Below, one piece after another: positions 9,408 through 36,301 of a DNA stretch of 64,000 bases. The notes beneath the pieces were generated by a model. It was not told where the DNA came from, ran no database searches, and saw nothing but the letters and a program-made list of their open reading frames with translations. The DNA is taken from positions 227,441 through 291,440 of the forward strand of contig JANQRH010000008.1 of assembly GCA_028284625.1 (NCBI GenBank), in the 5' to 3' direction. The stretch is from Afifellaceae bacterium (GTDB lineage: Bacteria > Pseudomonadota > Alphaproteobacteria > Rhizobiales > Afifellaceae). A program made the position numbers and the translations under genes. How positions within the stretch are numbered: the stretch's first letter is position 1; every line of letters begins with the position of its first letter.

Positions 9408-9497
9408 GATAGATCGTCTGCCGGCCCCCAGGGATCATCTGTGATGGGCGCGTGAGGCGGGGCCCGAGGTGGCATCAACGGTGAGGAGGAGCTTGGG

Positions 9498-11703: not shown

Positions 11704-11872
11704 GGGTTCGACCAATCCGATAAAGCCCTTGGGAAACCCAGGTTTAGAGGGCGCGGGCCGGGGGTGGCAACAGGCAATCGGGAGATGCGTGCCACGTTGT
11801 CTCTTCTCCGCGAGCGGCAAGCGCTTTAGAGAAAGCGGTGAAGCGCCAGGGCGTAACAACCGGAGGCATCTC

Positions 11873-13324: not shown

Positions 13325-13345
13325 GTGCGGCAACCGAGTGTGAAG

Positions 13346-15682: not shown

Positions 15683-15691
15683 ATTCGATCC

Positions 15692-16618: not shown

Positions 16619-16637
16619 CCGACCGGTCTCCTTCGAT

Positions 16638-16669
16638 GAACATATGACATTTTGTTTTACATATGTAAA
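16638..16669. promoter_or_regulatory. operator site A: GAACATATGACAT-n5-TTTACATATGTAAA, between the divergent transketolase and molybdoenzyme genes
   Basis: TTTACATATGTAAA (16656-16669) is a perfect 14-bp palindrome. The same half-site family recurs at 19194-19226 and 31570-31602. Confidence 0.5.
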
Positions 16670-16710
16670 GGTGGCTGGATGAGGCGCCAATATGTGATAA
16701 GGCTCCGCCC

Positions 16711-19008
16711 ATGGCAAATCGACTGACCGCGGCGCATTGGGGCAGCTACACGATTGCCGGCCGCCCAGACGATCCCGAACTGCAGAACGACCCCAACGAT
16801 CCGGCGCCGTCACGCATCGGGCGCGGCTGGCTGTCGGCGGCGCGCGATTCCAGGCTGCGCATTCGCAATCCGTCCATCCGCAAGGGCTGGCTGGACGGCG
16901 ACAAAGGGGCGGCGCGGAACGACGACAGCTTTGTTGAGGTGTCGTGGGAGAAGGCCTCCGATCTGGCGGCTGAGGAGCTCGCCCGTGTCATCCGTGCGCA
17001 CGGCAATGGTGCGATCTTCGCCGGTTCGTATGGCTGGGCGAGCGCCGGGCGGTTTCATCATGCCCAGTCGCAGCTCAGGCGGTTCTTGAATCTGATCGGC
17101 GGCTATACGGCAGCGCGTGACACCTACTCGCATGCGGCGGCCGAGGTGCTCCTGCCGCATATCGTCGGGATGACCAACAGCGAATACCAGGAGCGCATGA
17201 CGAGCTGGCCGCTGATTGCGGAGCATTGCAGCCTGCTCGTCGCGTTCGGCGGCATATCGGGCCGCACGGCGCAGATCGCGTCGGGTGGAACGTCGGCGCA
17301 TGAGGTTGAGCATTGGCTGAAGCGGGCGGCGGAGAACGGCACGGCGATCGTTAACATCTCGCCGCAGCGCGGCGACATGTCGGCGGTGCCCTCGGCGGAG
17401 TGGCTGGCGATTCGTCCGGGCACCGACACGGCGCTGATGCTTGCGCTGGCCTTCGAGCTCTTGACCAATGGGTGGCACGACGCAGCGTTCTTGGACCGCT
17501 ACACGAGCGGCTGGCCGCAGTTCGAAGCCTATCTGACGGGAACCAGCGACAATCAGCCGAAATCGCCCAATTGGGCATCGCCCATCTGCGACGTGCCGGC
17601 TGATGCAATTCGTAGCTTAGCGGCGCGTATGGCGCGTGAGCGTGTGATGATCACCGCGACATGGGGCCTGCAGCGCAGCGATCATGGCGAGCAACCGCTT
17701 TGGGCAGGGCTGACGCTCGCCGCCATGCTCGGCCAGATCGGCAAGCCGGGCACCGGCTTCGGCTTCGGCTATGGTTCCACCACACCGGTCGGCCGTCCGA
17801 AGCGCTTCATCCGGTGGCCGTCAGTGCCGCAGGGGCGCAATACGGTAGCCGATTTCATCCCGGTGGCGCGGATCGCCGACATGCTTCTGTCGCCGGGCGA
17901 GCCCTACACCTATGACGGGGAGGCGCGGCGCTACCCCGACATCCGGTTGGTCTATTGGGCGGGCGGTAACCCGTTTCATCATCATCAGGATTTGAACCGC
18001 CTGTCGGACGCCTGGACGCGGCCGGAAACGGTGATCGTCAACGACCATAGCTGGACGGCGACGGCGCGCCGCGCCGACATCGTCCTGCCGTCGACGACGC
18101 CGCTGGAGCGCGACGACATCATGATCAATCGCCGCGACCCGGCGCTGATCTATATGAGCCGCGCGATGGCGCCGCTCGGTGGCGCGCGCGACGACCACGC
18201 GATTTTTGGCGCGCTTGCCGAGCGCATGGGCGTCGCTGACGCATTCCACAAGAACCGCAGCGTCGACGAATGGCTGCATTGGCTATGGGCGGGCTGCCAG
18301 GGCGTCGCGCAAGTGGAGGGTTTTGCGCTGCCGGAGTTTGAGCGTTTCCGCGAGATGGGGCGCGTCGACATCCCCGACCAGGATGAAGTCCGCATCCAGA
18401 TGGGGGATTTCGTCGCTGACCCACAGACCAATCGGCTTCGCACCGAAAGCGGCAAGATCACGATCTTCAATGAGCGTATCGCGGCCATGGCGCTTGCCGA
18501 TTGTCCGGGGCATCCGACCTGGATCGCGCCGACGGAATGGCTGGGCGCGGCGCAGCCCGATCAACTGCATCTGATCTCGCCGCAGCCGGACACGCGGCTG
18601 CATGGCCAGTTGGACAACGGGGCTGTGTCGCAGGCGAGCAAGATCAGCGGCCGCGAACCGTGTCTTCTGCATCCAGATACTGCCGCACGCCATGGCCTGG
18701 GCGAGGGCGATGTCCTGCGGATCTTCAATGAACGCGGCGCGTGTCTTGCCGGCGTGCGATTGAGCGAGAGCATCCGGCCGGACTGCATCGCGCTTGCGAC
18801 CGGCGCTTGGTACGATCCGCAGATTGTCGACGGTGCGGCGTTGGAGGTGCACGGCAATCCGAATGTGCTCACCATCGACAAGGGCGCGTCGGGGCTTTCG
18901 CAGGGCAATATCAGTCACACTGCTCTGGTGCGGATTGAGAAATGGCAGGGCCCGCTGCCGCCGCTTCGGGTGAGCGGCCCGCCGGCGATCGTGCCGGCTG
19001 AAAGCTGA
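16711..19008 (+). CDS. bisC: molybdopterin-dependent S-/N-oxide reductase, biotin sulfoxide reductase-like (cytoplasmic, no Tat signal)
   Basis: Extensive by-eye collinearity with E. coli BisC: TAAHWG, SWDEA/SWEKA, IFAGSYGW, GTD.ALMLA...NGWHD.AFL, GEQ..W....LAAMLGQIG.PG.GFG, FHHHQD.NRL..AW..PE, DCPGHP.W..P.EW. Confidence 0.8.
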   Translation: MANRLTAAHWGSYTIAGRPDDPELQNDPNDPAPSRIGRGWLSAARDSRLRIRNPSIRKGWLDGDKGAARNDDSFVEVSWEKASDLAAEELARVIRAHGNGAIFAGSYGWASAGRFHHAQSQLRRFLNLIGGYTAARDTYSHAAAEVLLPHIVGMTNSEYQERMTSWPLIAEHCSLLVAFGGISGRTAQIASGGTSAHEVEHWLKRAAENGTAIVNISPQRGDMSAVPSAEWLAIRPGTDTALMLALAFELLTNGWHDAAFLDRYTSGWPQFEAYLTGTSDNQPKSPNWASPICDVPADAIRSLAARMARERVMITATWGLQRSDHGEQPLWAGLTLAAMLGQIGKPGTGFGFGYGSTTPVGRPKRFIRWPSVPQGRNTVADFIPVARIADMLLSPGEPYTYDGEARRYPDIRLVYWAGGNPFHHHQDLNRLSDAWTRPETVIVNDHSWTATARRADIVLPSTTPLERDDIMINRRDPALIYMSRAMAPLGGARDDHAIFGALAERMGVADAFHKNRSVDEWLHWLWAGCQGVAQVEGFALPEFERFREMGRVDIPDQDEVRIQMGDFVADPQTNRLRTESGKITIFNERIAAMALADCPGHPTWIAPTEWLGAAQPDQLHLISPQPDTRLHGQLDNGAVSQASKISGREPCLLHPDTAARHGLGEGDVLRIFNERGACLAGVRLSESIRPDCIALATGAWYDPQIVDGAALEVHGNPNVLTIDKGASGLSQGNISHTALVRIEKWQGPLPPLRVSGPPAIVPAES

Positions 19009-19034
19009 GGTTTGGGCCGGCGGATTGGCCAATT

Positions 19035-19136
19035 GTCGTCATGCCCGGACTTGATCCGGGCATCCATTCCTGAGCCGCTCGACTTGGCGAAGCGCCAGCG
19101 GAATGGATTGCCGGGTCCAAGCCCGGCAATGACGAC
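19035..19136. repeat. palindromic MITE/REP-like element, family 2 (two ~36-bp inverted arms, each itself a hairpin)
   Basis: Left arm: gtcgtcatgcccggacttgatccgggcatccattcc (19035-19070). It matches the reverse complement of ggaatggattgccgggtccaagcccggcaatgacgac (19100-19136). Confidence 0.6.
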
Positions 19137-19193
19137 AGATATAAGGACCACGCCAATGGGTCCGATGCACGCCGCGGCGACAGGCGGGCTGAA

Positions 19194-19226
19194 TTTACAA
19201 ATGTCAATCATTATGTCATATGTAAC
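19194..19226. promoter_or_regulatory. operator site B: TTTACAAATGTCA-n6-TGTCATATGTAAC, upstream of the kinase/ADH/aldolase/SorC operon
   Basis: Read directly. It lies 24 nt upstream of the start at 19250. Its half-sites match sites A and C. Confidence 0.5.
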
Positions 19227-19249
19227 ACCAACGAAGTAGGGAATACGGC

Positions 19250-20758
19250 GTGGAGGAATTGTGGCTGGGTGTCGATATCGGCACCACGATGATCAAGGCC
19301 GCCGCCTACCGTCCTGACGGCACGCAGGCCGCATATGCGGAGGCGTCGGTCCCGGTTCAGCGGACCGGCGAGGGTTGGGCGGAGCAGGATATGCATGCCG
19401 TGTGGAGCGGCGTGTGCGCCGTCCTGCGCGCCGTGGCTAAAGACGTCGACACGGCCGTGATCAGCAGTATCGGACTCGCCGCTCAAGGCGACGGGCTGTG
19501 GATGCTCGACGATGCCGGGCAGCCCAACGGCCCGGCCATGCTGTGGAACGACACACGCGCCGGCCGCGACGTTGAGGCGCTGATCGCCGACGGTCGCGCA
19601 GCCGCTGTCGGCCGCGCCTGCAACACATCGAACTGGCCGGGCACGAGCGGTAGCCTCTATGGCTGGCTGAAGCGTAACGACCCGGCGCGTGCGGCCAAGA
19701 CGGCGCGTGTTCTCTACTGCGCCGATTGGGTCGGCTATTGCATGACCGGCGTTGTCGCGACGGATCTTGCCGACGCGTCAATCCCGTTTTTCGACCTTCA
19801 GACCAAGAGTTGGTCGGACGCCGCCCTGGCGGCTCTCGACTGCGAAGACTTGAAGGCGAAGCTGCCCAATCCGCAGCCCGCCGATACGATCCTGGGGCGT
19901 GTGACCAAAGACGCGGCAGAGGCGACCGGTCTGCCCGAAGGGCTTCCCGTCTCAACCGGCACGCTCGATCTCGGCGCCATGATCGTCGGCATGGGCATGG
20001 ATCAATCCGGTCAGACGATGATGATCCTGGGCACCACCGCGGTGGTCAACATTCTCACCGACCGGATTGAGCCGGCGGATGCGCCTGTCGGGGCGACGAC
20101 GTTTCATTCCACCGCCGACCTCAAGATCCGCATCCTTGCGCCGTCGACCGGTGCGGCGGCGTTCGATTGGTTCACAGCACTTCACCCGCAGTCGCTCGGC
20201 GGCGACAGTCCCGGCGAAGTTGCCGAGAAGCTGAACGCGCTGGCGCGCGACGTGCCGCCCGGATCGCGCGGCGTTCTGTTCCTGCCTTATCTCAACGGCG
20301 AGCGGGCGCCCTTTGTCGCGCCGTTGGCGCGCGGCTCGTTCCATGGCCTGACCAGCGACACATCGAAAGCGGAGATGGGCCGTGCGGTCATGGAGGGCGC
20401 CGCATTCAGCCTGCGCCACTGCTTTGAAGCTGAGGGCGCGACGCCGAGCGAGCCTGTGCAGCTCACCGGCGGCGGGGCGCGGAACGCGCTTTGGTGCGAC
20501 ATCGTCGCGGACGTGCTCGGCGTGCCGGTGATCGTGAGCCCGCTCAGCGATCACGGCTTATGGGGTGCGGCGTGCATTGGTGCGGCTGCCGCCGGCAAGG
20601 GCAATGCGTGCCGGTTGGCAGCGCGGGACGAGCATGGCTGGACGCATGAGCCGGATGCGGAGCGACACGCCGTCTACAATGGCGCCTTCAAGCGCTACGC
20701 GGCGGTGTCGGAGGCAAGCCGGCCGATCTGGGCGGCCATGCGTGATGAGGACGAGTGA
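19250..20758 (+). CDS. FGGY family carbohydrate kinase (xylulokinase/ribulokinase-like)
   Basis: N-terminal LGVDIGTT motif, then GLAAQGDG, LPYLNGERAP and GGGARN motifs. Confidence 0.85.
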   Translation: MEELWLGVDIGTTMIKAAAYRPDGTQAAYAEASVPVQRTGEGWAEQDMHAVWSGVCAVLRAVAKDVDTAVISSIGLAAQGDGLWMLDDAGQPNGPAMLWNDTRAGRDVEALIADGRAAAVGRACNTSNWPGTSGSLYGWLKRNDPARAAKTARVLYCADWVGYCMTGVVATDLADASIPFFDLQTKSWSDAALAALDCEDLKAKLPNPQPADTILGRVTKDAAEATGLPEGLPVSTGTLDLGAMIVGMGMDQSGQTMMILGTTAVVNILTDRIEPADAPVGATTFHSTADLKIRILAPSTGAAAFDWFTALHPQSLGGDSPGEVAEKLNALARDVPPGSRGVLFLPYLNGERAPFVAPLARGSFHGLTSDTSKAEMGRAVMEGAAFSLRHCFEAEGATPSEPVQLTGGGARNALWCDIVADVLGVPVIVSPLSDHGLWGAACIGAAAAGKGNACRLAARDEHGWTHEPDAERHAVYNGAFKRYAAVSEASRPIWAAMRDEDE

Positions 20759-20764
20759 GGGCAG

Positions 20765-21826
20765 ATGGCCGAAATGATGAAAGCTGCGGTCTATTACGCG
20801 CTTGACGATATCCGCATTGAGGATCGTCCGATCCCCAAGATCGGCCGCGACGAGATGCTCTTGAAGACGCTGGCCTGCGGTCTGTGCGGCGGCGAGACCA
20901 TGGCCTGGTATAAGAAGGCAGAGCCGAAGGTCATCGGGCATGAACCGATCGGCGAGGTGGTCGAGGTCGGCTCGGACGTCAAAGACTACAAGGTCGGCGA
21001 CCGTCTCTTCGTCAACCATCATGTCGGGCGGATCGACAGTCATCTGTCGCGCCGCGGGCATTTCACGCGCGACCCGTTCTATTCGCAGATGAAGCTCGAT
21101 CCCGGCGGCGTCTGCGAGTTCTACCGCGTCACCGCACAGCATCTGCGGATGGACGCGCACAAGCTTCCCGACAGCATCAGCACTGAAGCGGCGGTCACGA
21201 TCGAGCCCTGGTCGTGCGTCATGAGCGGGCTGAAAGTGTGCAACATCCAGCCCGGCGATGCGGTCGCCGTGGTCGGCGCCGGCTTCATGGGGCAGGGGTT
21301 CGTGCATCTGTCATCGCTCTTCGGCGCGGGGAAGGTGGTGGCGCTCGATTTCTCAGACTGGCGGCTGGCGCGCGCACGGGAGTTCGGTGCGACCCATACG
21401 ATCAACCCCAAAAACGAGGATGCCGTTGCCGCCTTGCGTGCGGCCAACAACGGTCGGCTCGCCGATACGGTGATCGTCATCGCGCCGTCGACGGCCGCTT
21501 GGGCGCAAGCTTTGGCGCTTGTGGAGGTCGGCGGCACGCTTCATCTTGGCGCGCCGCTGCCGCCCGACACCGATTGGGTGAGAGACGGCAACGCCGCCTA
21601 CTTCGACCAGATCAGTGTGACCTCGCGGTACAGCTCCGATCACACCGACACCTACAGCTATATCCGCCTGCTTGAGGCCGGCCGCATCAAGGCCGATCAG
21701 GCGATCTCGCACCGCTTCGACATTGCCGACGCGGCCGAGGCGTTCGAGATGCTGGTCAAGGCGGAGAAGTCTTTGAAGATCATCGTCTACCCCCACGGCG
21801 TGCCGGAAGGAGCGGGACATGCTTGA
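20765..21826 (+). CDS. zinc-dependent alcohol/polyol dehydrogenase (MDR superfamily)
   Basis: GHEPIGEVVEVG zinc motif, catalytic Cys (ACGLCGGE) and a Rossmann GAGFMGQG motif. Confidence 0.85.
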   Translation: MAEMMKAAVYYALDDIRIEDRPIPKIGRDEMLLKTLACGLCGGETMAWYKKAEPKVIGHEPIGEVVEVGSDVKDYKVGDRLFVNHHVGRIDSHLSRRGHFTRDPFYSQMKLDPGGVCEFYRVTAQHLRMDAHKLPDSISTEAAVTIEPWSCVMSGLKVCNIQPGDAVAVVGAGFMGQGFVHLSSLFGAGKVVALDFSDWRLARAREFGATHTINPKNEDAVAALRAANNGRLADTVIVIAPSTAAWAQALALVEVGGTLHLGAPLPPDTDWVRDGNAAYFDQISVTSRYSSDHTDTYSYIRLLEAGRIKADQAISHRFDIADAAEAFEMLVKAEKSLKIIVYPHGVPEGAGHA

Positions 21827-22484
21827 GGCGCTGAAGGAAGAAGTTTGCGAGCAGAATCACGAACTCCCGCGCAATGGGCTGGTGGTCGGCTCGGGCGGCA
21901 ACGTCTCAGGGCGTGACCCGGAGAGCGGACTGATCGTGATCAAGCCGTCGGGCGTGAAGTTCGCCAAGCTGACGCCGGACACCATGGTGGTCGTCGACAT
22001 CGACGGCAATGTCGTTGACGGTCATATGAAGCCGTCGGTCGATACCGGCATTCACCTCTACATCTACCGCAAGCGTGACGATGTCTTCGGCATCACGCAC
22101 ACGCACTCTCCCTATGCCACGAGCTTTGCCGCGCGCGGCGAACGCATCCCCGCGGTGCTCACGCCGATCACCCATATGCTGGGGCGCGACATTCCATGCT
22201 CACGTTATGCCACGCCGGGCGAAGTGGATACCGGCGAAGCCATTCTGGAGGCGGCCGACGGCGGGTATGCCGTGCTGGTCAAGGCGCATGGCGTGTTCAC
22301 CATGGGTGGCTCCGCCAAAGAGGCGACCTCGATCGCCATGTATTTGGAAGAGGCGGCGATGACCACGCATCTTGCGATGCTCCATGGGCCGGTGGAGGAG
22401 CTGCCGCAGGAAGAGATCGACCGGTGCTACCGGTGGTTCCGCAAGAATTACGGCCAGTCCGGCGCAAAGGCGGTCAACGCGTGA
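21819..22484 (+). CDS. class II aldolase/adducin family protein (L-ribulose-5-phosphate 4-epimerase-like)
   Basis: GNVSGRD, IKPSG, HTHSPYAT and KAHGVFT motifs. It overlaps the upstream gene by 8 nt. Confidence 0.85.
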   Translation: MLEALKEEVCEQNHELPRNGLVVGSGGNVSGRDPESGLIVIKPSGVKFAKLTPDTMVVVDIDGNVVDGHMKPSVDTGIHLYIYRKRDDVFGITHTHSPYATSFAARGERIPAVLTPITHMLGRDIPCSRYATPGEVDTGEAILEAADGGYAVLVKAHGVFTMGGSAKEATSIAMYLEEAAMTTHLAMLHGPVEELPQEEIDRCYRWFRKNYGQSGAKAVNA

Positions 22485-22581
22485 TGCCATTCGCTCCGGC
22501 CCAAATCATCGGCTAAAACTGTTACCCTGCTCGCCGAATCTCGGCGCGGCGTCGCCTGGATTGAGGCTGGAGACGAAAACA

Positions 22582-23589
22582 ATGGCCGCAAGACCGCGTC
22601 CGGACAACAAACGAAAAAGCGATGCCGATGTTCCGAGCGTCCTGAACCAGCGCGACAGCGTCCTGGCCAATGTCGCACTGCTCTATTACGGCGAGGGCCT
22701 GACCCAGTCGGAAATTGCGAAGCGTATGAAGGTGTCGCGCGCAACGGTGATCAACCAGCTGCGCGAAAGCCGCGAACTCGGCATTGTCGACATCCGCATT
22801 CGCGGCGAAGCGCTTGCCGTGTCGAGCCTGTCGCGGGCGCTGTGTGAGCGGTTCGGGCTGGATGACGCCTATGTCGCCTATGGCGCGGGGAACGGCGCGG
22901 CGCTTCTTCGAAATACGGCGCGCGTTGCGGCCATGGCCGTGCTCGACATCATCGAGCCGGGCGATCAGGTGGGTGTGTCCTGGGGCGAGACGCTGAAGAG
23001 CGTTGCCGACAGTCTGCCGAGCCAGCGGGTCGACGATGTGGCCATCTCGCAGGTTATTGGCTCAATGGACACGGCCCGGCTGCCTGCTGCGGAAACCTGC
23101 GCCATCCGTATCGCCAATCGGCTGCATGCGCATTGCTACACGCTGCACGCGCCGGCGCGGCTTTCAACCGAAGCGCTGGCGAAATCCATCAGCGCCGAAC
23201 CGGCCATCAAGCGTCAGCTGGCGCGTTTCGACAAGCTTGACCTCATTCTCTACTCCATCGGCGACGTCTCCGCGCAGACGCATCTGGTCGCCTCCGACAT
23301 TGCGACGGCGGAGGAACTCAGGCGCGCCATCGACAACGGCGCGTGCGGCATCGCCTGCGGCCGCTACTACGATCGTGGCGGCGCACATGTTTCCGATCCG
23401 CTCGATGATCGGCTGATCGCCATCACGATCAAGCAACTCAAGGCCGTTCCGAAACGATTCCTGGTCGCAGCCGGCCGCAGCAAGCGGACGGCAACGCTGG
23501 CGGCGCTTGCCGGTGGAATGGTCAGCCATCTTTGTGTCGATCAGGAGCTTGCCGAGTGGCTGCTTGAGGCGTTGGTCGAGGAGGTGTGA
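22582..23589 (+). CDS. SorC family sugar-binding transcriptional regulator (ORF track over-extends to 22372)
   Basis: The ATG at 22582 gives an N-terminal HTH (LYYGEGLTQSEIAKRMKVSRATVINQL). A SorC/DeoR-type sugar-binding domain follows. Confidence 0.85.
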   Translation: MAARPRPDNKRKSDADVPSVLNQRDSVLANVALLYYGEGLTQSEIAKRMKVSRATVINQLRESRELGIVDIRIRGEALAVSSLSRALCERFGLDDAYVAYGAGNGAALLRNTARVAAMAVLDIIEPGDQVGVSWGETLKSVADSLPSQRVDDVAISQVIGSMDTARLPAAETCAIRIANRLHAHCYTLHAPARLSTEALAKSISAEPAIKRQLARFDKLDLILYSIGDVSAQTHLVASDIATAEELRRAIDNGACGIACGRYYDRGGAHVSDPLDDRLIAITIKQLKAVPKRFLVAAGRSKRTATLAALAGGMVSHLCVDQELAEWLLEALVEEV

Positions 23590-23616
23590 CGCCGCTCCCG
23601 CGGCGGGCACGGATTA

Positions 23617-23772
23617 ACCTCCCCCTTGAGGGGAGGTCGAAGTTTGCGGAACGTAAGTGCACGCAAACTTCGGGAGGGGGTGAGCGGTTGATCAGCGTAG
23701 GAACGTCGCTCACCCCTCCCCGAAATCGGCTCGCAAAGCTCACCGATTTCGACCCTCCCTCAAGGGGAGGGT
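23617..23772. repeat. REP/MITE-like composite palindrome, family 1 (two ~68-bp inverted arms)
   Basis: Left arm: cctcccccttgaggggaggtcgaagtttgcggaacgtaagtgcacgcaaacttcgggagggggtgagcg. After a loop comes the right arm: cgctcacccctccccgaaatcggctcgcaaagctcaccgatttcgaccctccctcaaggggaggg. It shares the family of 14525-14637. Confidence 0.75.
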
Positions 23773-23812
23773 TAGGCCGAGTCTCGAGCGTGATCTAAAA
23801 CCCGATAGGGCG

Positions 23813-25186
23813 CTATTGCGTGACGATTTCCGGCCCCATGAGGAAGGTCGGCAAGGCCGTCGATAGAGGCGGCACGTAGGTCACCAGGATCAGGAACAGG
23901 AACATGATGCCGACCCAGGGGAGGGCGGCGCGCACGACGCTTGTCACCGACATTTTAGCCACGCCGGCCGTCACGAACAGATTGAGGCCAACCGGTGGCG
24001 TGATCATGCCGATCTCCATGTTCACGACCATGATGATGCCCAGGTGGATCGGATCGATCCCCAACTCCATGGCGATCGGAAACACCAAAGGCGCGACGAT
24101 GACGAGGAGGCCGGATGGCTCCATGAACTGGCCGCCGATCAAAAGCAGCACATTGACCACAACGAGGAACATGATTGGCCCGAGGCCTGCCGCCAGCATG
24201 GCTTCGGTAATCAATTGCGGAATGCGCTCCTCCGTCAGCACGTGCTTTAGAATCAGCGCATTGGCGATGATGAACAGCAGCGTAATGGTCACCATGCCGG
24301 CCTGGATCAGCGTCTCGCGGGTGTCGGAATGGAACCACGCTGTGATCAAGGCTTGCGGCTGCCGCAGCAGCGATTTGGGTTCGCCGTCGGTCGATTTCAG
24401 CGGGCCCATGTCGCGATAGACGAAGTTGGCGATGAAGAACGCATACATGGCCGCGACCGCAGCGGCCTCGGTGGGCGTGAACACGCCGCCATAGATGCCG
24501 CCGAGGATGATGACGATCAGAGCCAGTCCCCAGATGGCGTCACGGGCGGAAGCAAGCACCTCGCGAAACGACGCGCGTGGCTGCGACGGCAGGCCTTTAA
24601 CCAGTGCCACCACCAGGATGCCGGCCATCAGCATCAAGCCGGCGACGATGCCGGGAAAGACGCCGGCCAAGAACATGCGGCCCACGGAGACATCCACCGA
24701 CGCTGCGTAGACGACCATGACGATGGAGGGCGGGATGAGGATGCCCAGCGTGCCAGCGTTACAGATGACACCGGCGGCGAATTCCTTCTTGTATCCGACC
24801 TGCCGCATACCGGCGATGACGATGGTGCCGATGGCGACGACCGTCGCCGGCGACGAGCCGGAGAGCGCAGCAAACAGCATGCAGGCGAAGACGCTGGCGA
24901 TCGCCAGACCGCCGGGGAGGTGTCCGACGGTGGCGATGGCGAAACGGATGATGCGCTGCGCCACGCCGCCGGTCGACATGAAGGCGGAGGCGAGGATGAA
25001 GAAGGGGATCGCCAGCAGCGTGAAGTGGCCGGCGAAGGCGTTGAAGAGCGTCTGTGCGATGGAGGCAAGCGAGGCGTCGGAATAGACGATCAGAAAGATG
25101 ATCGATGACAGGCCGAGGCTGACCGCGATCGGAACGCCGAGGAAAAGAAAGCCGATGATGAGGACGAAGAGGAGAACGACCGACAT
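23813..25186 (-). CDS. dctM: TRAP transporter large permease subunit
   Basis: 457-aa polytopic protein with typical DctM sequence character. It lies downstream of the dctQ-like and dctP-like genes. Confidence 0.9.
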   Translation of the reverse strand: MSVVLLFVLIIGFLFLGVPIAVSLGLSSIIFLIVYSDASLASIAQTLFNAFAGHFTLLAIPFFILASAFMSTGGVAQRIIRFAIATVGHLPGGLAIASVFACMLFAALSGSSPATVVAIGTIVIAGMRQVGYKKEFAAGVICNAGTLGILIPPSIVMVVYAASVDVSVGRMFLAGVFPGIVAGLMLMAGILVVALVKGLPSQPRASFREVLASARDAIWGLALIVIILGGIYGGVFTPTEAAAVAAMYAFFIANFVYRDMGPLKSTDGEPKSLLRQPQALITAWFHSDTRETLIQAGMVTITLLFIIANALILKHVLTEERIPQLITEAMLAAGLGPIMFLVVVNVLLLIGGQFMEPSGLLVIVAPLVFPIAMELGIDPIHLGIIMVVNMEIGMITPPVGLNLFVTAGVAKMSVTSVVRAALPWVGIMFLFLILVTYVPPLSTALPTFLMGPEIVTQ

Positions 25187-25189
25187 GGA

Positions 25190-25858
25190 TCAATCGGCCT
25201 TGTATGAGACTTCGGACAGCTCCTCGAGCGCGTCTTCCGCCTCATGTCCGGCGATGATGCGGTCCTGCCGGCCGGTATAGACGGCCCAGCCGGCCTGGGC
25301 GAAGCGGATGCACAGAAGCGTCATGCCGAGCGGCAGAGCAAAATATGGAATGAAGCGGGGGAGCTTTTCCCATCGTTCGCCCTCGTTCAGCGAGTCCTTC
25401 AGGAACTGTAGGAACTCCGGCATGTAGATGTCGTTGACTTCGTACCAGGCCTGCGGGCCGGCGAATAAGCCCCAATATTGCCAGGAGCCCACGGCGATCA
25501 GGCCGGCATAAGCAAGGCTTGCCGCGACGGCGGCCAGTCCGACAATGCGCCGCGCGGTGTGCGGCAAAGCGGCAATCAGAACGTCGACACCAAGATGAGC
25601 GTTTTTCTTCACCGCATAAGAGGCGCCGATAAGCACAAGCCAGGCGAACAGGAAGACCGTCGCTTCAAGCGCCCACAATATGTTTGAGTTGAAGCCGTAG
25701 CGGACAACGACATTGGCGAAGGTGATCAGCGTCATCAGGCCGAGAAGGATTGCGATCAGCAATTCTTCGACCAGGTCGGTCCACCGTCTTGGCGCTGGCG
25801 TGTCCATGCTCCCCCCGTTGCCCGTCTTTTTAGGGCCGTCTTCTTGTTGCGCGACCAA
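25190..25858 (-). CDS. dctQ: TRAP transporter small permease subunit (start uncertain: TTG 25858 or ATG 25807)
   Basis: Four predicted TM segments and a position between the dctP-like and dctM-like genes. Both candidate starts have a short SD spacing. Confidence 0.8.
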   Translation of the reverse strand: MVAQQEDGPKKTGNGGSMDTPAPRRWTDLVEELLIAILLGLMTLITFANVVVRYGFNSNILWALEATVFLFAWLVLIGASYAVKKNAHLGVDVLIAALPHTARRIVGLAAVAASLAYAGLIAVGSWQYWGLFAGPQAWYEVNDIYMPEFLQFLKDSLNEGERWEKLPRFIPYFALPLGMTLLCIRFAQAGWAVYTGRQDRIIAGHEAEDALEELSEVSYKAD

Positions 25859-25888
25859 TGCCTCCGTTGGTGGGGGCTTAGCGCGATG

Positions 25889-25925
25889 GCCCTGCCGCCG
25901 ATCCGGTTCGTGCCGGCGGCAGGGC
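25889..25925 (-). terminator. intercistronic stem-loop between dctP and dctQ
   Basis: A perfect 12-bp stem, gccctgccgccg (25889-25900) paired with cggcggcagggc (25914-25925), with a 13-nt loop. Confidence 0.6.
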
Positions 25926-25944
25926 TTGTTCGGCGAATGGCCGT

Positions 25945-26949
25945 CTAGTTCATCACATTATAGGACAAAGCGGCTTCGATCACGTCGCGGCCGATATCCT
26001 TTTCGAACTTCTCCCAGACCGGCTGCATGGCCTCAACCCAGGCCTGGCGCTGCTCCGGCGTCAGCTGGCGGATGGTGCCGCCGGCGTCGATGATGAGCTG
26101 CTTGGCTTGGTTGTTGACCGCGGTCGACTCTGCGTTGCGCAGCTCCGTTACCTCGGTGAAGATCGTGGAAAGCTGGCTGCGGACGTCCCCGTCGAGCCCT
26201 TCCCACCAATCGACCGACGTCACGACGAGGTAGTCGAGAATGCCGTGGTTGGTCTCGGTGACGCCGTCCTGCACCTCGAAGAACTTCTTGCCGTAGATGT
26301 TGGACCAGGTGTTCTCCTGGCCGTCGACGACCTTGGTCTGCAGGGCGCCGTAGACCTCCGAAAACGCCATCTTCTGCGGGCTGGCGCCGAGCGCCTCAAA
26401 CTGCGCAACCAGCACATCGGAGGGCTGCACGCGGAACTTCAGGCCCTGAGCGTCCTCAGGCGTCATCAGCGGACGGTTGGCCGACATCTGCTTCATGCCG
26501 TTGTGCCAGAAGCCGAGTCCGAGCAGGCCCTTGCGCTTCATCGAGGTGAGAAGTTTCTGGCCGTCTTCCGATGTCTGGTAGCGATCGACGGCGTCGACAT
26601 CGGTGAACACGAAGGGCAGGTCGAACAGCCGGAACTTCTTGGTGAAGGTCTCGAACTTCGACAGCGACGGCGCCGCCATCTGCACGTCGCCGCGCAGCAT
26701 GGCCTCAAGCACCTGGTCGTCGTTGTAGAGGCTGGAGTTTCCAAACACCTCCACACACGCCTTGCCGTCCATCTCGGCGTTGACGCGCTCGGCGAAAAGC
26801 GAGGCGGCGATGCCCTTGGGGTGCTTGTCGGTGTTGGTGACGTGGCTGAACTTGATGACCGTTTCGCCGGGGTCGCAAGCTGCCTGCGCATTGGCGGCGA
26901 GCGCGCCGACGAGGCCGACAGCAACGGCCAGGGTCTTGATGTGTTTCAT
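25945..26949 (-). CDS. dctP: TRAP transporter substrate-binding protein (C4-dicarboxylate DctP family)
   Basis: ATG at 26949 with a GGAGGA RBS. Signal peptide MKHIKTLAVAVGLVGALAANAQA. DctP-family character throughout. Confidence 0.9.
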   Translation of the reverse strand: MKHIKTLAVAVGLVGALAANAQAACDPGETVIKFSHVTNTDKHPKGIAASLFAERVNAEMDGKACVEVFGNSSLYNDDQVLEAMLRGDVQMAAPSLSKFETFTKKFRLFDLPFVFTDVDAVDRYQTSEDGQKLLTSMKRKGLLGLGFWHNGMKQMSANRPLMTPEDAQGLKFRVQPSDVLVAQFEALGASPQKMAFSEVYGALQTKVVDGQENTWSNIYGKKFFEVQDGVTETNHGILDYLVVTSVDWWEGLDGDVRSQLSTIFTEVTELRNAESTAVNNQAKQLIIDAGGTIRQLTPEQRQAWVEAMQPVWEKFEKDIGRDVIEAALSYNVMN

Positions 26950-27163
26950 GGGTTCCTCCATTCAGCGGTTAATCTCGATCCCGCGCAATTCTTACGGGTT
27001 GCACCTCGCGTCTCACTGGCAGCGCGGAGATGCAATGCAAAAAACGCGGCTGTGCGGCATTATGCGCAGAGACGTTTGCGGGGGTGGGTGGAAAGCGACA
27101 CATCGGCGCGTGTCACGTGGGTCGAACGCGACCCATTTCCGCAGAAATCGCAGCTTTGGCGCT

Positions 27164-28519
27164 TCAGCCGTCCGGTCCGTCGTCGCGGTAATCTTCGCGA
27201 TTAAGGCCGTGCTTGCGCATCTTCTCGTATAGCGATTTGCGCGACAGGCCGAGCGATTTGTAAGTCTCGTTCAGCCGGCCGCTCTGTGCGGCAAGTTCCG
27301 CGACGATGAGGTCGCGCTCAAACGCCTCCATCTTCTGCGCCAACGATCCGGCCTCGTCGCTCTCGTCCTCGACACCGTCGCCGTCGATGCCGAGCCCGAG
27401 CGCAAACCGGTCGGCGGCATTTCTCAGCTCACGGACATTGCCCGGCCAGGCGCGCGTGGCGAGCACGGATAGCGTGCTTGCCGGGATGTCCGGCGGCGCT
27501 TTGTGGGACCGGGCCGCGGCTTCCGCAACAAGTTGCGTGAACAGGCGCGGCACGTCGGCGACGCGCTGCTCCAGGGTCGGCATGCGCAGCGTCACGACGT
27601 TGAGGCAATACAAGAGATCGCTGCGAAAACGGCCTTCGGCCGCCTCTTGCTCAAGGTCAGCCTTGCTTGCGGCAACAAAGCGAACGTCGAGCGGGATCGG
27701 ATCGTTGGAGCCGAGGCGCGTCACGCTGCGCTCCTGCACGACCCGCAAGAGCTTGACCTGCAGATTGATCGGCATGCTCTCAATCTCGTCGAGGAACACC
27801 GTGCCGCCGCGTGCATGCTCAAACTTGCCGTAGCGCCCCTTGGTGGCGCCGAGAAATGCACCGGCCTCATGGCCGAAGAGCTCGTTCTCGATGAGATCGG
27901 CCGGCAGCGCTCCGCAATTGATGGCCACGAACGGCTCGCCGGCCCGCGGGCTTATGGCGTGCAGCGCGCGCGCCGCCACCTCTTTGCCGGTTCCGGTGGC
28001 GCCGACAATGAGAACGTCGGCATCGGTTGGGGCAACGGCCCGAATCTGGCGTCGGAGCTCGACCATGACATCGGTGCGGCCGGTCAGCCGCGCCTCCAAC
28101 TCGTCGCGCCGCGCCACGACGGAGCGCAGCTCGCGGTTCTCCAGCGTTAGGCGCCGCTTGTCGATGGCGCGTCTGACAACGTCGATGAGGTGATCGGAGG
28201 CGAAAGGCTTCTCGATGAAATCGTAGGCGCCGGCGCGCATGGCCTCCACGGCGAGCTGCACGTCGCCGTGGCCGGTCACTAGGACGATCGGAAGCTCCGG
28301 ATCGATGGCAAGAGCGCGCTGCATGAACGCCATACCGTCCAAGTTGGGCATGCGCATGTCGGTGACGAGCACGCCGTCATAGTCGCGATCGAGCAGATCG
28401 AGCACGGCTGATGCGTTTGAGAAGCACTCAGCTTGCAGATCGGCCAGGTCGAAGGCTTGCCTGGCCGCTAGGCGGATGTGCTCTTCATCGTCGATGAAGA
28501 TGACCTGCGCGCTGCTCAT
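27164..28519 (-). CDS. dctD: sigma-54-dependent response regulator (NtrC/DctD family)
   Basis: Receiver domain (VTDMRMP), AAA+ sigma-54 interaction domain (GATGTGKE, GAFLGA GAFTGA-like loop, FLDEIE) and a C-terminal Fis-type HTH. Confidence 0.9.
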   Translation of the reverse strand: MSSAQVIFIDDEEHIRLAARQAFDLADLQAECFSNASAVLDLLDRDYDGVLVTDMRMPNLDGMAFMQRALAIDPELPIVLVTGHGDVQLAVEAMRAGAYDFIEKPFASDHLIDVVRRAIDKRRLTLENRELRSVVARRDELEARLTGRTDVMVELRRQIRAVAPTDADVLIVGATGTGKEVAARALHAISPRAGEPFVAINCGALPADLIENELFGHEAGAFLGATKGRYGKFEHARGGTVFLDEIESMPINLQVKLLRVVQERSVTRLGSNDPIPLDVRFVAASKADLEQEAAEGRFRSDLLYCLNVVTLRMPTLEQRVADVPRLFTQLVAEAAARSHKAPPDIPASTLSVLATRAWPGNVRELRNAADRFALGLGIDGDGVEDESDEAGSLAQKMEAFERDLIVAELAAQSGRLNETYKSLGLSRKSLYEKMRKHGLNREDYRDDGPDG

Positions 28520-30369
28520 TCGGCAGCTTCCACCGCGCGGTCGGCGGCGTTCAGCTCGATCGTGAACTCAGCGCCTCCGCCAGGCCGGTTGGCGGCGTTC
28601 AGAGACCCGCCGAAGTCCTTGATGATGTTGTAGGAGACCGAAAGGCCCAGGCCGAGACCTTCGTTGATCCCCTTGGTGGTGAAGAACGGGTCGAAGATCA
28701 GGTCGAGATGCTCTTCGGCGAGCCCGCGGCCGTTGTCGCTAACAACGATCAAAACGCGATCGTCCTGGCGTTCCGCGCGGATGGTGATCTCCGGCGCCCG
28801 CTCGCTCTCCGGCACGGCGTCAAGCGCGTTGCCGATCAGATTGACCAGCACCTGTTGGAGGCGGACCTGACCGCCGACAACCAAGAGTTCTTCTTCGCCC
28901 AGGTCGACATGCACATTTGCGTCGCCGGAACGAAGCCGGCCGGCGAGAAGCTGCAGCGCGTCGTTGACGGCCGTCGCAACCGCGACTGTGCCGATCCGCT
29001 GCTGCGGCTTGCGTGCAAAGTTGCGGAGGTGGTTGCTGATCTCCGCCATGCGGTCGACCAGCTCCGATATCCGCGTGATGTTGTCCTGCGCCTCGCCGGT
29101 GCGCTGGCGGTCGAGATAGGCGTTGGCGTTCTCCGCATAGGACTTCATGGCGGCGAGCGGCTGATTGAATTCGTGCGACAGGGCGGCCGACATCTGGCCA
29201 AGCGCGGCGAGCTTTCCGGCCTGAACGAGGTCGGCTTGCGACTTGCGAAGGCGTCGCTCCGCGTCCGTGCGCTCACGGATTTCCAGCGTGAGCTGCTTGT
29301 TGGCCGCATCGAGGTCGATGGTTCGTTCGTTGACGCGCTGTTCAAGCTGCGCCTGCGCCTCGCGTTGCGCCTCCAGCCGCTCGTTCAACCGCACGCGCCG
29401 CTGCAAGAGGTAGGCCGCTGCAAGAGCGGCGACCATGATCGTGAGAATGGCCGCGACGAATGCGGAGGTCGCCTGCGCCGTCGCGGCGGCCCTCGGCGTC
29501 AAAAGGTGGATGGTCCACGCGGCCTCCGGCATGTCGAGCTCGGTCATCACGAAAGCTTCTGATGCGCCGGCTGTTTGAACAGTCATGAGGCGTGCCGTGG
29601 CCCCAAGCGCCTCGAAGCCGACGTCAAGGGGCTCCAGGCTCTCCAACGGGTACTGCTTGAACGTCTCGATCGCCTCCAGCGCTGCGGCGTCAAGCGGCGC
29701 AAGCGTCTTAAAATGCCACGCGTCGCGGCTCGACATGAAGATCACGCCGTTCTCGTCGGTGACGATCAGTTGGCTGTCGCCCCAGCGCCAAGCAGCTTCC
29801 AGGTCGTCGACGCTCACCTTCACGGCCACGACACCGACAATCGTGTCGTCGCTGCGGACCGGCGCCGCGAAGTAATAGCCGCGCTTCAGCGATGTCGTGC
29901 CCAGCGCGAAGTAGCGCCCGAGCTCGCCTTCCGCTGCGGCCTGGAAGTAAGGGCGATAGCTGAAAGCACGTCCGATGAAGGAAGTGTCGCTATCGAAATT
30001 GCTGGCGGCGAGGGTCACGCCGGCCGGGTTCATCACATAGATGTCCGAGGCGCCGACATCGGCTGCGATGCGCTTCAGTTCGCGGTTGGTGCGATCGATC
30101 CGATTATCCGACGCCAGCGTGAGGAGCGCTTTGATGTCCATCTTGTCGGCGATCAGGCCGGGCAGCGGCTCGTAGCGCATCAGCGCGCCGCGCAAGCCGG
30201 CGGCAGCCAGTCGCAATGTGCCTTCGCTCTGCTCGGCGGCGCGGTTCAGGAAGAATCGTTCCGTGGCGCCGAAGCCGAACCACCCGGCCAGTGCGAGCAC
30301 AAGCGCTGCCATAAGGAGCGCTGCCCAGAATCTCGACCAACGTCTTTTCACGCAACGATTATCGCGCAA
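28516..30369 (-). CDS. dctB: sensor histidine kinase (DctB-like: periplasmic sensor domain, HisKA, HATPase)
   Basis: Two TM segments flank a ~270-aa periplasmic domain. It has an H-box (SHEFNQPL) plus N, G1 and G2 boxes (GNALDA, DNGRG, GLGLGL). It overlaps dctD by 4 nt. Confidence 0.85.
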   Translation of the reverse strand: MRDNRCVKRRWSRFWAALLMAALVLALAGWFGFGATERFFLNRAAEQSEGTLRLAAAGLRGALMRYEPLPGLIADKMDIKALLTLASDNRIDRTNRELKRIAADVGASDIYVMNPAGVTLAASNFDSDTSFIGRAFSYRPYFQAAAEGELGRYFALGTTSLKRGYYFAAPVRSDDTIVGVVAVKVSVDDLEAAWRWGDSQLIVTDENGVIFMSSRDAWHFKTLAPLDAAALEAIETFKQYPLESLEPLDVGFEALGATARLMTVQTAGASEAFVMTELDMPEAAWTIHLLTPRAAATAQATSAFVAAILTIMVAALAAAYLLQRRVRLNERLEAQREAQAQLEQRVNERTIDLDAANKQLTLEIRERTDAERRLRKSQADLVQAGKLAALGQMSAALSHEFNQPLAAMKSYAENANAYLDRQRTGEAQDNITRISELVDRMAEISNHLRNFARKPQQRIGTVAVATAVNDALQLLAGRLRSGDANVHVDLGEEELLVVGGQVRLQQVLVNLIGNALDAVPESERAPEITIRAERQDDRVLIVVSDNGRGLAEEHLDLIFDPFFTTKGINEGLGLGLSVSYNIIKDFGGSLNAANRPGGGAEFTIELNAADRAVEAAE

Positions 30370-30397
30370 ACAAACGGCGCGGCATAGGTGGGTGTCT

Positions 30398-30477
30398 CAG
30401 AGCCCATTGGAGGCTCTGTTTCTTTATTGGAGCATGATCTTATCCGAAAACCGGTTCCCACTTTTCGGGATCATGCT
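30398..30477. repeat. REP-like palindromic repeat, family 3, abutting the stop codon of the PfkB kinase gene
   Basis: The reverse complement, agcatgatcccgaaaagtgggaaccggttttcggataagatcatgctccaataaagaaacagagcctccaatgggctctg, aligns with 37453-37554. Confidence 0.75.
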
Positions 30478-31421
30478 TAGTCCAGGCGCTCCGCCTGGCG
30501 CATGAATTGTTGCGTCGCGGCAAGGTCCACGACACCGGCGTCAGAGCCGAGGCCGGTGGCGACCAAAGCGGACGTCGCCGTGCCGAGCTCGCAGGCCTCG
30601 CGCACGCCAAGGCCCATCGCCAGCCCGGCAACGAAGCCGCCGCAATAGGAATCGCCGCAGCCCGTCGTGTCCGATACGGCGACCTTGTAGGCTGGCAGCC
30701 GATACTCTTCGTCCGCCGTCTTTACGAACGATCCCTTGGCGCCCCATTTAAAGACGCAGGCGCCGGCGCCCAATTCCATGAAGAAGGCGGCCATGTCGCG
30801 CGGCTCGCTGCGGCCGGAAAGAAACGCCGCTTCCTCCATCGACGGCATGAAGTAGTCGACATGCGGGAGCGTATCCTTCAGCAGCGTCACGGTCTGGTCG
30901 TTGGGGGCGATGAGGTCGAAGGTGACGGTCAGGCCTTTGGCTTTGGCGTGTGCCAGCAAAGCAGCGCTCGGCCCGGCATCCATGGCGTTCATCAGGCCGG
31001 TGCCGCCGTGATGCAGGATGCGCGCATCGCAGACGCGATCGAAGTCAGCTTCTTTCACCTCCAGGAAGTCGGACGCGCCGCGCTGGTGGAGGGCAGGGCG
31101 CTCGCCGTTGGGGCGTATCGTCAGAATGGTGGCGGAGGTCGGTGCGGAATCCGTGCGCTGCACCATGGAGCAATCGATGCCCATGCCGGCATATTGATTG
31201 AGGATGAAATCGCCTTTCTCGTCGTTGCCTACACAGGCGATCGTGGCGGTGCTGATACCGAGCTTGGCGGCATTCATGACGGCGCCCGCCGCAGTTCCGG
31301 CCGGGTTCATGCGGATCTCTTCGATGAACTCCACGCCGCCGCCATCGGGGATCTTCGACACCGGGCGTCCGGCGATATCGAGAATGGTCAGTCCGACGAA
31401 GACGGCATCGAAGTTCGGCAT
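30477..31421 (-). CDS. PfkB family carbohydrate kinase (ribokinase/2-keto-3-deoxygluconate kinase-like)
   Basis: 314 aa with the C-terminal PfkB signature DTTGCGDSYCGGF and an N-terminal GG dipeptide region. Confidence 0.85.
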   Translation of the reverse strand: MPNFDAVFVGLTILDIAGRPVSKIPDGGGVEFIEEIRMNPAGTAAGAVMNAAKLGISTATIACVGNDEKGDFILNQYAGMGIDCSMVQRTDSAPTSATILTIRPNGERPALHQRGASDFLEVKEADFDRVCDARILHHGGTGLMNAMDAGPSAALLAHAKAKGLTVTFDLIAPNDQTVTLLKDTLPHVDYFMPSMEEAAFLSGRSEPRDMAAFFMELGAGACVFKWGAKGSFVKTADEEYRLPAYKVAVSDTTGCGDSYCGGFVAGLAMGLGVREACELGTATSALVATGLGSDAGVVDLAATQQFMRQAERLD

Positions 31422-31569
31422 GGCGGCGCTTCCTTAGTTCTGTCCTTGCTCATGTGCAGCCCGCCTCCTGAACAGGCGGCGTGATCATTCTCTGGCACTC
31501 TCCTCCCGCTGGCGCCAGGCGCTGTGCGGTTTTGTGCGGCCGGCTCCTAAACCGCTATTTGTACGTAGA

Positions 31570-31602
31570 TTTACATATGACGTTCGAATTGACATTTGTA
31601 AA
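31570..31602. promoter_or_regulatory. operator site C: TTTACATATGAC-n7-TTGACATTTGTAAA, between the divergent PfkB kinase gene and the ABC/RLP operon
   Basis: Read directly. The inverted-repeat half-sites match sites A and B. Confidence 0.5.
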
Positions 31603-32650: not shown

Positions 32651-32666
32651 TCCGCCTCAACGATTG

Positions 32667-32692
32667 GAGGGCGCCGGTGCTTCGGCGCCCTC
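32667..32692 (+). terminator. stem-loop just downstream of the binding-protein gene
   Basis: A 10-bp stem, gagggcgccg paired with cggcgccctc, with a 6-nt loop, followed by tctcattt. Confidence 0.55.
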
Positions 32693-32786
32693 TCATTTGG
32701 TGTCGGCGCGTGCCATGATGGCCGGGTTCGCCGGCAATCCACACCGGCAAGACGTGTGAGCTTTTTGGGGAAGGAGCCATTTGGGG

Positions 32787-36284: not shown

Positions 36285-36301
36285 GAAAAGGCGAGGGTTC
36301 T

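Follow-up and report, generated by a model that had tools for sequence, protein, structure and literature searches.

Conserved 33-bp paired-palindrome sites, probable operators of a SorC-family repressor, upstream of transketolase, sugar kinase and transporter/RuBisCO-like protein genes in a coral-associated Afifellaceae bacterium

Genes and paired palindromes in the window

The stretch of DNA analysed here, hereafter the window, comprises 64,000 nucleotides (64 kb) of an Afifellaceae bacterium known from a coral metagenome-assembled genome (assembly GCA_028284625.1, contig JANQRH010000008.1). It carries a split transketolase operon divergent from a gene for a BisC-like molybdoenzyme, an operon that runs from an FGGY sugar kinase gene to a gene for a SorC-family regulator, and a PfkB-family sugar kinase gene divergent from an ABC transporter operon that ends with the gene for a RuBisCO-like protein (RLP) (Table 1). 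Upstream of these units lie AT-rich sites of 33 bp, called A, B and C below, of which the window holds exactly three. These sites, together with the SorC/DeoR-subfamily regulator that probably reads them, are the subject of the present work.

Each site is made of two 14-bp near-palindromes, TTKACAWWTGTMAA, placed exactly 19 bp apart from centre to centre, with five AT-rich bases between these two boxes and an overall dyad symmetry of the whole. The consensus of the boxes is TTKACA-WW-TGTMAA, their outer arms being mostly TTTACA and their inner arms TGWCA, and one box of site A (TTTACATATGTAAA) is a perfect palindrome. The core ACAWWTGW recurs at a spacing of exactly 19 bp in all three places (3/3), and the real unit is therefore the 33-bp site. 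Indeed, when spacings from 10 to 39 bp were tried in the window, pairs reaching at least 25 bits were obtained only at 19 bp, and exactly three times.

The motif TTTACAWATG occurs five times in the 64 kb for 0.02 occurrences expected, a count reached by none of 100 shuffled sequences, and a search for TTTACAWATGWCA with up to two mismatches returned the six half-sites, one degenerate match in the dctM coding region (24758) and nothing else in the window. With a weight matrix whose training sites all came from other genomes, the three sites scored 32.6 to 41.6 bits, while the next best position of the window scored -4.0 and the best score among 200 random windows, drawn from a first-order Markov model, was 10.7 bits. 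The same box geometry (19 bp from centre to centre) was found in 32 distinct external sites, in which C5 and G10 are invariant (64/64 half-sites) and A6 is kept in 63 half-sites out of 64. The preliminary description of this DNA had proposed six half-sites at three promoter regions and no copy in the other intergenic regions of the window; all six are present, and none of these other regions carries the site. Its view of them as simple half-sites of 12-14 bp, in pairs, has to be revised: the positions stand, but both ends of every site are imperfect palindromes of 14 bp in their own right. Our gene calls also agree with its statement that the SorC protein is the only regulator encoded inside the three units, as the last gene of the site-B operon.

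The sites lie 18 to 70 nt from start codons. Site A is 18 nt from the start codon of tktN, whose operon is transcribed away from it, and 41 nt from that of the divergent BisC-like gene; site B ends 23 nt before the start codon of the FGGY kinase gene, and site C ends 70 nt before the ATG of the sugar-binding protein (SBP) gene. On the other side of site C, the pfkB ATG is 148 nt from the start of the site, and pfkB is probably a member of the regulon too, as judged from the place of PfkB genes in other loci (below). Neither a riboswitch nor any other known RNA was found by Rfam between positions 14000 and 39000, and the terminator scan of the spacers returned nothing.

Table 1. Positions in the window of the paired-palindrome sites and of the genes and features around them
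Feature	Position	Strand	Remarks
Split transketolase	14678..16618	-	tktN 15692-16618, tktC 14678-15682; NCBIfam transketolase halves
Site A, putative operator	16637..16669	.	TGAACATATGACAT-TTTGT-TTTACATATGTAAA; 32.6 bits (external matrix)
BisC-family molybdopterin S/N-oxide-reductase-like enzyme, 765 aa	16711..19008	+	TIGR00509 bisC_fam 871 bits, below the cutoff of 1017
REP/MITE-like compound palindrome	19034..19138	.	GTCGTCATGCCCGG...CCCGGCAATGACGAC; fills the BisC-FGGY spacer
Site B, putative operator	19194..19226	.	TTTACAAATGTCAA-TCATT-ATGTCATATGTAAC; 39.5 bits (external matrix)
FGGY sugar kinase	19250-20758	+	xylulokinase model 289 bits, cutoff 380
Zn-dependent alcohol (polyol) dehydrogenase	20765-21826	+	
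Class II aldolase/L-ribulose-5-P 4-epimerase-like (AraD-like) enzyme	21819-22484	+	PRK06557 epimerase subfamily 248.9 bits, cutoff 251
SorC/DeoR-subfamily regulator, 335 aa	22582..23589	+	last gene of the kinase operon
PfkB-family sugar kinase	30477..31421	-	divergent from the ABC operon
Site C, putative operator	31570..31602	.	TTTACATATGACGT-TCGAA-TTGACATTTGTAAA; 41.6 bits (external matrix)
ABC operon	31673..37459	+	SBP, ATPase, two permeases, RLP
CUT2-type SBP	31673-32650	+	
ABC ATPase	32781-34328	+	
ABC permeases	34318-35304 and 35304-36284	+	
RLP	36302-37459	+	ATG at 36302, 17 nt past the permease stop

None of the regulon enzymes, kinases or transketolase halves reached a curated NCBIfam equivalog cutoff, and the substrate therefore cannot be named. 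For the RLP, the best-scoring model is MtnW, the 2,3-diketo-5-methylthiopentyl-1-phosphate (DK-MTP-1-P) enolase, with 184 bits for a cutoff of 409, and the OiaX model NF042437 gave 56.9 bits, over residues 71-193 only, for an equivalog cutoff of 700. Assignments of the RLP as a methionine-salvage (MtnW) or D-apiose (OiaX) enzyme were rejected on these scores, and so was that of the FGGY kinase as a xylulokinase (Table 1). The BisC-like enzyme has no signal peptide. The two transketolase halves, TktN and TktC, are 76-90% identical to orthologues whose genes bear the same upstream site.

Conservation of the sites and of gene order in other genomes

A scan with the SorC protein, at one genome per species, returned 25 loci, mostly of Rhodobacterales/Paracoccaceae and one of Salaquimonas. 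Upstream of orthologous transketolase, kinase and ABC transporter genes, the same site was found in about 30 loci (Rhodobacterales, Devosia-like bacteria, Salaquimonas), cited below, where needed, by our locus labels (L). Its neighbour is nearly always a SorC-family gene, the product of which has a DNA-binding domain about 85-90% identical to that of the window SorC. About 20 loci share one arrangement, in which tktC-tktN is followed by a spacer of 79-97 bp and then by genes for the molybdoenzyme, the FGGY kinase, the alcohol dehydrogenase (ADH), the AraD-like enzyme and SorC, with the 33-bp site in mid-spacer; the order FGGY-ADH-AraD-like is kept in more than 25 loci. In orthologous loci, the FGGY gene follows the molybdoenzyme gene after only about 20-40 bp, which makes the latter, as far as gene order can tell, the first gene of the operon, and the BisC-like molybdoenzyme a predicted core member of the regulon.

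Among plasmids, megablast returned only pMaD5 of Marinovum algicola, with 79.6% identity over the ADH and epimerase genes, and this plasmid carries three sites. In one public run (X6), a low-depth contig from a variant strain, tentatively RNA, starts inside the Marinovum operator and enters the molybdoenzyme gene (L017 2119-2341); it is too thin for a transcript-start call.

Homologues of the SBP are numerous (83-93% identity) in roseobacters, together with one from a Devosia metagenome-assembled genome, and SBP genes are preceded by orthologous sites in L027, L029, L030, L032, L035 and L036. In L027, from an uncultured Roseobacter, the SBP gene is divergent from a gene for a SorC paralogue (8790-9948; 45% identity to the window SorC, with a nearly identical recognition helix), and the site between the two genes, TTTACACATGTAAA-ATTAT-TTGACTTTTGTAAT, is of the same design; the L027 assembly, GCA_947493125.1, also carries a transketolase-linked SorC gene (L019). 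In L029, a stretch of 780 bp without a called gene (9222-10001) is found upstream of the SBP gene, where L027 has its SorC paralogue; the putative operator is still present (9917-9949), and the stretch may be a decayed regulator gene.

Several loci bring the genes of the window together. In Yoonia (L032), SorC-aldolase-ADH-FGGY on the minus strand is followed by SBP-ATPase-permease-permease (+), molybdoenzyme-ADH (-) and tktN-tktC (+), with sites in the FGGY/SBP spacer and upstream of tktN. The Devosia-like loci L030 and L036 have the FGGY gene (-) divergent from a series that runs from the SBP gene to permease-tktN-tktC, with two near-perfect sites, the one between permease and tktN being the same 33-bp palindrome in a non-divergent context. 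L036 has in addition an RLP gene after tktC and a PfkB gene after the aldolase gene, ending the aldolase-ADH-FGGY operon. The Tara scaffold L035 carries FGGY (-), SBP-ABC (+), molybdoenzyme (-) and tktN-tktC-RLP (+), again with two sites. In both of these metagenome scaffolds, L035 and L036, the RLP gene thus comes immediately after tktC, downstream of a site of this kind, and in L034 the PfkB gene lies beside the SBP gene. When four FGGY/SBP spacers were aligned, the site and a short C-rich stretch beside FGGY, which we read as the ribosome-binding site of FGGY, were the only conserved elements, and they form a phylogenetic footprint.

On L035/L036 (8997-11140), the RLP gene begins where tktC is called to end, its first base being the last of tktC (coordinate 10001 in both), and translation of the two adjoining genes may be coupled. 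The RLP gene of the window comes after an ABC permease gene instead, and the enolase-superfamily gene located after it (37620-38849) was not seen after RLP in L035.

Specificity of the site was evaluated over 722 kb, made up of the window and 34 related loci. Every match of at least 15 bits is upstream of tktN, FGGY/SBP, a sulfatase gene or an SsuA-type SBP gene, with no off-target match. When a metagenome collection was scanned with the strict pattern, the only match fell within a reading frame of an AT-rich contig; we read it as a chance match, and no new loci were gained. No full site was found in L028, L033 and L034, which have orthologous enzymes and no SorC gene in view. Of the outcomes that the preliminary description had named as adverse, neither abundance of the motif at unrelated places nor its lack of conservation upstream of orthologous operons was seen in the sequences covered, and it is indeed present at the tktN/molybdoenzyme, FGGY/SBP and tkt-upstream positions of other genomes. 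The single gene set that it had predicted exists as one contiguous cluster in Yoonia and in the metagenome scaffolds L035 and L036; the units that it linked are linked there, including PfkB and RLP in the scaffold clusters, but it had missed the BisC-like enzyme as a core member.

In most roseobacter loci, a sulfatase gene is preceded by a second site of this design and is itself divergent from an SsuA/NMT1-type ABC transporter or from an aldehyde dehydrogenase gene (L006 10890-15398; L010 10935-13536; L026 3085-5762 and 14768-17839), and in most of these loci the gene for the sulfatase-maturing enzyme (FGE) directly follows sorC. On the basis of these positions, the sulfatase, FGE and SsuA-type transporter would belong to the roseobacter regulon; none of them is in that of the window. 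Their presence at the operator hints at a sulfated substrate.

The SorC-family regulator and its predicted mode of action

The SorC protein is the only regulator kept with the cluster across genomes. It matches the Pfam Sugar-bind profile PF04198 (IPR007324; E = 3.3e-57) over residues 81-329, with the full profile covered, and a Sigma70_r4-like helix-turn-helix (HTH) in its N-terminal part (residues 34-56). Homology extends over the full length of Bacillus subtilis DeoR (8R7Y, from residue 11), Klebsiella pneumoniae SorC (2W48) and LsrR (4GO1), the alignments with the last two spanning their DNA-binding domains, whereas CggR is aligned over the effector (sugar-binding) domain only. The window SorC is therefore a member of the SorC/DeoR subfamily, which has an HTH domain of 50-60 residues and a beta-linker, as opposed to the winged helix of about 100 residues in the CggR subfamily (PMC11229326). 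Equivalog cutoffs were not reached with the models for DeoR (NF053881; 168 bits, cutoff 420) and for the autoinducer-2 (AI-2) repressor LsrR (NF011947; 95.9 bits, cutoff 486). The DNA-binding region of the window SorC, LANVALLYYGEGLTQSEIAKRMKVSRATVINQLRESRELGIVDIRI, is about 85-90% identical to that of positional orthologues, for about 52% (51-53%) over whole proteins, and such a strongly kept domain would fit the shared DNA motif.

We read the three 33-bp sites as operators of this SorC/DeoR-subfamily repressor, with a probability of about 0.8. SorC-family repressors are dimers of dimers in which each dimer of DNA-binding domains reads one palindromic half-operator, while the effector domains join the dimers and the pathway sugar or phosphosugar loosens this joint (PMC11229326). 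Release is triggered by deoxyribose 5-phosphate (dR5P) or by fructose 1,6-bisphosphate (FBP)/dihydroxyacetone phosphate (DHAP) in some precedents (PMC11229326), and by erythritol in another (PMC10190533). Two 14-bp palindromes 19 bp apart fit directly this dimer-of-dimers model of DeoR and CggR. By analogy with the solved complexes of DeoR and CggR with DNA, each 14-bp box would be occupied by one dimer of DNA-binding domains, and the sugar-binding domains would link the two box-bound dimers into a tetramer. Repression of this kind would extend to four units, namely the split transketolase, the BisC-like molybdoenzyme, the FGGY/polyol dehydrogenase/AraD-like/SorC operon and the ABC transporter/RLP operon, the third of these making SorC an autoregulated repressor. 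A sugar, polyol or phosphosugar of the pathway would then release the repressor, the product of the FGGY kinase being the likeliest candidate effector.

Position with respect to promoters argues for repression rather than activation. The right box of site C holds TTGACA, a match to the -35 hexamer, within TTGACA-16-TAGGAT (10/12 consensus matches). On the minus strand, a promoter-like match is found at 16717-16689, according to which site A would span about +13 to +45 of the tkt transcript, and another overlaps site B. In the roseobacter loci L001-L022, a conserved AAAAGTCAAG is found directly right of the tktN/molybdoenzyme site (e.g., L010 4406-4415); read on the tkt strand, it gives CTTGAC, abutting the site, which we take to be the alphaproteobacterial -35 consensus, and the -10 region and transcription start of roseobacter tkt would accordingly fall inside the operator. 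By these matches, the operators would lie on or beside core promoters, or in the early transcribed region, and, once bound by the tetramer, would block transcription.

The regulator and its operator design are ordinary for the SorC family, and would work like DeoR, CggR and EryD. B. subtilis DeoR, the best structural relative of the window SorC by sequence, aligned over its full length, is built alike, with a short HTH at the N-terminus and a sugar-binding domain at the C-terminus (PDB 8R7Y, PMC11229326). Its dra-nupC-pdp operator has two halves, each with a dimer of the tetramer, and overlaps the promoter of a sugar-catabolic operon; a pathway phosphosugar releases the repressor. DeoR is, however, not an orthologue of the window SorC by NCBIfam cutoff, and its target genes are unrelated. 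The recognition helices differ (SRATVINQL in the window SorC, SRPTVSRLL in DeoR), and so do the operators: that of DeoR is 39 bp long and asymmetric, its left box, ATTGAACAAAATTTCAAT, having TTGAA/TTCAA arms about 11 bp apart, whereas that of the window is shorter, with other boxes and an overall dyad symmetry. The gapA operator of B. subtilis CggR is also bound by a dimer of dimers on two palindromic half-operators, with overall C2 symmetry, and its half-operator repeat of 20 bp, as counted from the quoted operator sequence, is close to the 19 bp of the window. The CggR gene likewise lies inside the operon under its control, and its operator can follow the transcription start, a position that site A may have relative to tkt. 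CggR differs by its winged-helix DNA-binding domain of about 100 residues and by its 45-bp operator (CGGGAC...GTC). EryD, of the Ochrobactrum/Brucella type, is an alphaproteobacterial SorC-family repressor of a polyol route with an FGGY kinase and an ABC transporter, and its single operator of about 29 bp, from which a pathway polyol releases the repressor, is located inside the promoter, between -35 and -10 (PMC10190533); EryD is compared here by operator length and position. Unlike the EryD system, the window set includes a split transketolase, a BisC-like molybdoenzyme, an AraD-like enzyme, PfkB and an RLP.

Other readings of the sites were considered. Site C, and possibly others, could be SorC-type operators whose main occupant is a second SorC paralogue, with its gene beyond the 64-kb window, and the transporter/RLP operon and the kinase/transketolase genes would then form two cross-talking regulons. 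We regard this as unlikely. The L027 locus does offer a precedent, as its SBP gene is divergent from its own SorC gene with a site of the same design in between, in an assembly that also holds a transketolase-linked SorC, and the recognition helix of the paralogue is nearly that of the window SorC. However, the sole SorC of the Yoonia cluster is encoded in the FGGY operon, yet sites are found both in the FGGY/SBP spacer and upstream of the transketolase, and in the window it is pfkB, not a regulator gene, that sits beside the SBP gene. Moreover, the reverse complement of site B is identical to site C at 26 of 33 positions, so that one protein should bind both.

The boxes also hold TTGACA/TTTACA-like hexamers, in line with the -35 hexamer inside site C and with the minus-strand match over site B, as if the sites were mere sigma-70-type promoter elements (TTGACA/TTTACA as -35, a TATG-rich -10) working without a dedicated transcription factor. 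A promoter nevertheless needs neither dyad symmetry, nor a fixed 19-bp spacing of boxes, nor invariant C5, A6 and G10 on both arms; the same palindrome is found in divergent and non-divergent contexts (permease to tktN in L030 and L036), and the element is missing from all other promoter regions in the 722 kb. The promoter-only reading, which we find hardly credible, was rejected on symmetry and fixed spacing. Binding by a regulator of another family seems very improbable as well, although a LacI-type regulator (about 10708-11700), an IclR regulator (41914-42708) and DctD are encoded in the window, and although two TGTCA pentamers give site B a faint likeness to the Pho box of a global regulator such as PhoB. 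Indeed, the cluster is accompanied by none of these genes in other genomes, and the site is not designed like those of LacI, DctD or Pho regulators: a LacI operator is one palindrome, about 20 bp long and with CG at its centre, and DctD acts from upstream activator sites at sigma-54 promoters. A Pho box in site B was rejected because the period of TGTCA is 12 bp and not 11, and the repeat is not conserved in most orthologous sites.

Several points weigh against the reading of the sites as operators of the window SorC. The matrix that first brought out the external training sites had been seeded with the window's own sites, so that the external-site scores are partly circular, and the scan of the source genome covers the 64-kb window only. 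Promoter assignments are consensus matches only, and no canonical plus-strand promoter came out of the promoter scan for either the BisC-like gene or the FGGY gene. The search for an RNA run of the source genome returned none, and the RNA contigs that public runs gave on the Marinovum locus are low-depth fragments with no usable 5' ends. Autoregulation by read-through is not certain, owing to the gap of 97 nt between the AraD-like gene and sorC. Finally, the window SorC is the most divergent of its group, both from its positional orthologues and from the ABC-linked paralogue, and its effector domain may therefore have changed; the paralogue of L027, with its similar helix and site, implies that a second regulator encoded outside the 64 kb could act on site C.

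History of the locus and possible role of the gene set

In the Devosia-like, Yoonia and Tara loci, both operons share one divergent FGGY/SBP site, whereas the FGGY and SBP operons are 12 kb apart in the window. The reverse complement of site B has the orientation of the single FGGY/SBP site of the Devosia and Yoonia loci, and sites B and C look like descendants of one such divergent site. The BisC-FGGY spacer is 241 bp long in the window, against 20-40 bp, without a site, in orthologues, and as judged from this comparison the long spacer, and with it site B, would be lineage-specific. It is filled by the REP/MITE-like palindrome (Table 1), present in one copy in the window (minimum free energy -69 kcal/mol, z = -5.45), which may act as a terminator or an insulator between the molybdoenzyme gene and the kinase operon. 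The simplest reading of these arrangements is that a rearrangement split one conserved catabolic cluster into three, each piece having kept or gained a copy of the operator; the regulon would thus have outlasted the break-up of its gene cluster in this coral-associated genome.

The neighbourhood of the three pieces contains other gene blocks. Between the SorC operon and pfkB (23813-30369), a TRAP transporter (dctPQM) and a DctB/DctD two-component pair of sigma-54 type are encoded, without an operator copy, and this block has the look of an unrelated insertion that separates two pieces of the former cluster. The gene for the LacI-family regulator, on the minus strand, is divergent from genes for an SSADH-like aldehyde dehydrogenase and for an M24 peptidase/creatinase-like protein (region 10708-14515); these lie directly beside tktC, and no SorC-type site is found there. 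A separate sugar-type cluster (38926-45963), with genes for a thiamine pyrophosphate (TPP)-dependent enzyme, a GFO/IDH/MocA oxidoreductase and the IclR regulator (minus strand), is divergent from another ABC transporter, of the SBP_bac_1 type.

As to function, the operator may tentatively be seen as the signature of a catabolic pathway that is widespread among marine alphaproteobacteria, namely roseobacters, Devosia-like bacteria and coral associates, and as yet uncharacterised. Such a pathway would comprise a CUT2-type ABC transporter, one or two polyol dehydrogenases, FGGY and PfkB kinases, an AraD-like enzyme, a dedicated split transketolase, a cytoplasmic BisC-family molybdoenzyme and a form-IV RLP, and there are hints that its substrate could be a sulfated or sulfur-oxidised sugar or polyol from algae or corals. 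Carter and co-workers reportedly described, in 2018, D-apiose clusters with the RuBisCO-like OiaC/OiaX and an apulose-4-phosphate split transketolase. In these clusters, too, an RLP and a split transketolase are encoded along with sugar kinases and the binding protein of a CUT2-type ABC transporter; the low OiaX score of the window RLP, and the sub-cutoff scores of both transketolase halves and both kinases, make this a resemblance only, not membership, and we know of no BisC-like molybdoenzyme in apiose routes. In the searchable literature, we found no description of the motif and gene set, including any SorC motif in Rhodobacterales. If such a pathway exists, its RLP would convert, in a new reaction, a ketose (bis)phosphate supplied by the two kinases.

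The specificity of the 33-bp site and the clustering of the genes group the RLP, the molybdoenzyme, the split transketolase and the two sugar kinases into one predicted inducible unit. This unit is present in cultured bacteria, namely Marinovum algicola (pMaD5), Yoonia and Mameliella, through which the function of this clade of RLPs becomes experimentally tractable. The predicted repressor and its operator may also offer a compact pair for synthetic biology, a use for which EryD has already served. From an evolutionary point of view, the locus would provide a clean example of a regulon that survives the break-up of its gene cluster by keeping, or copying, its operator.

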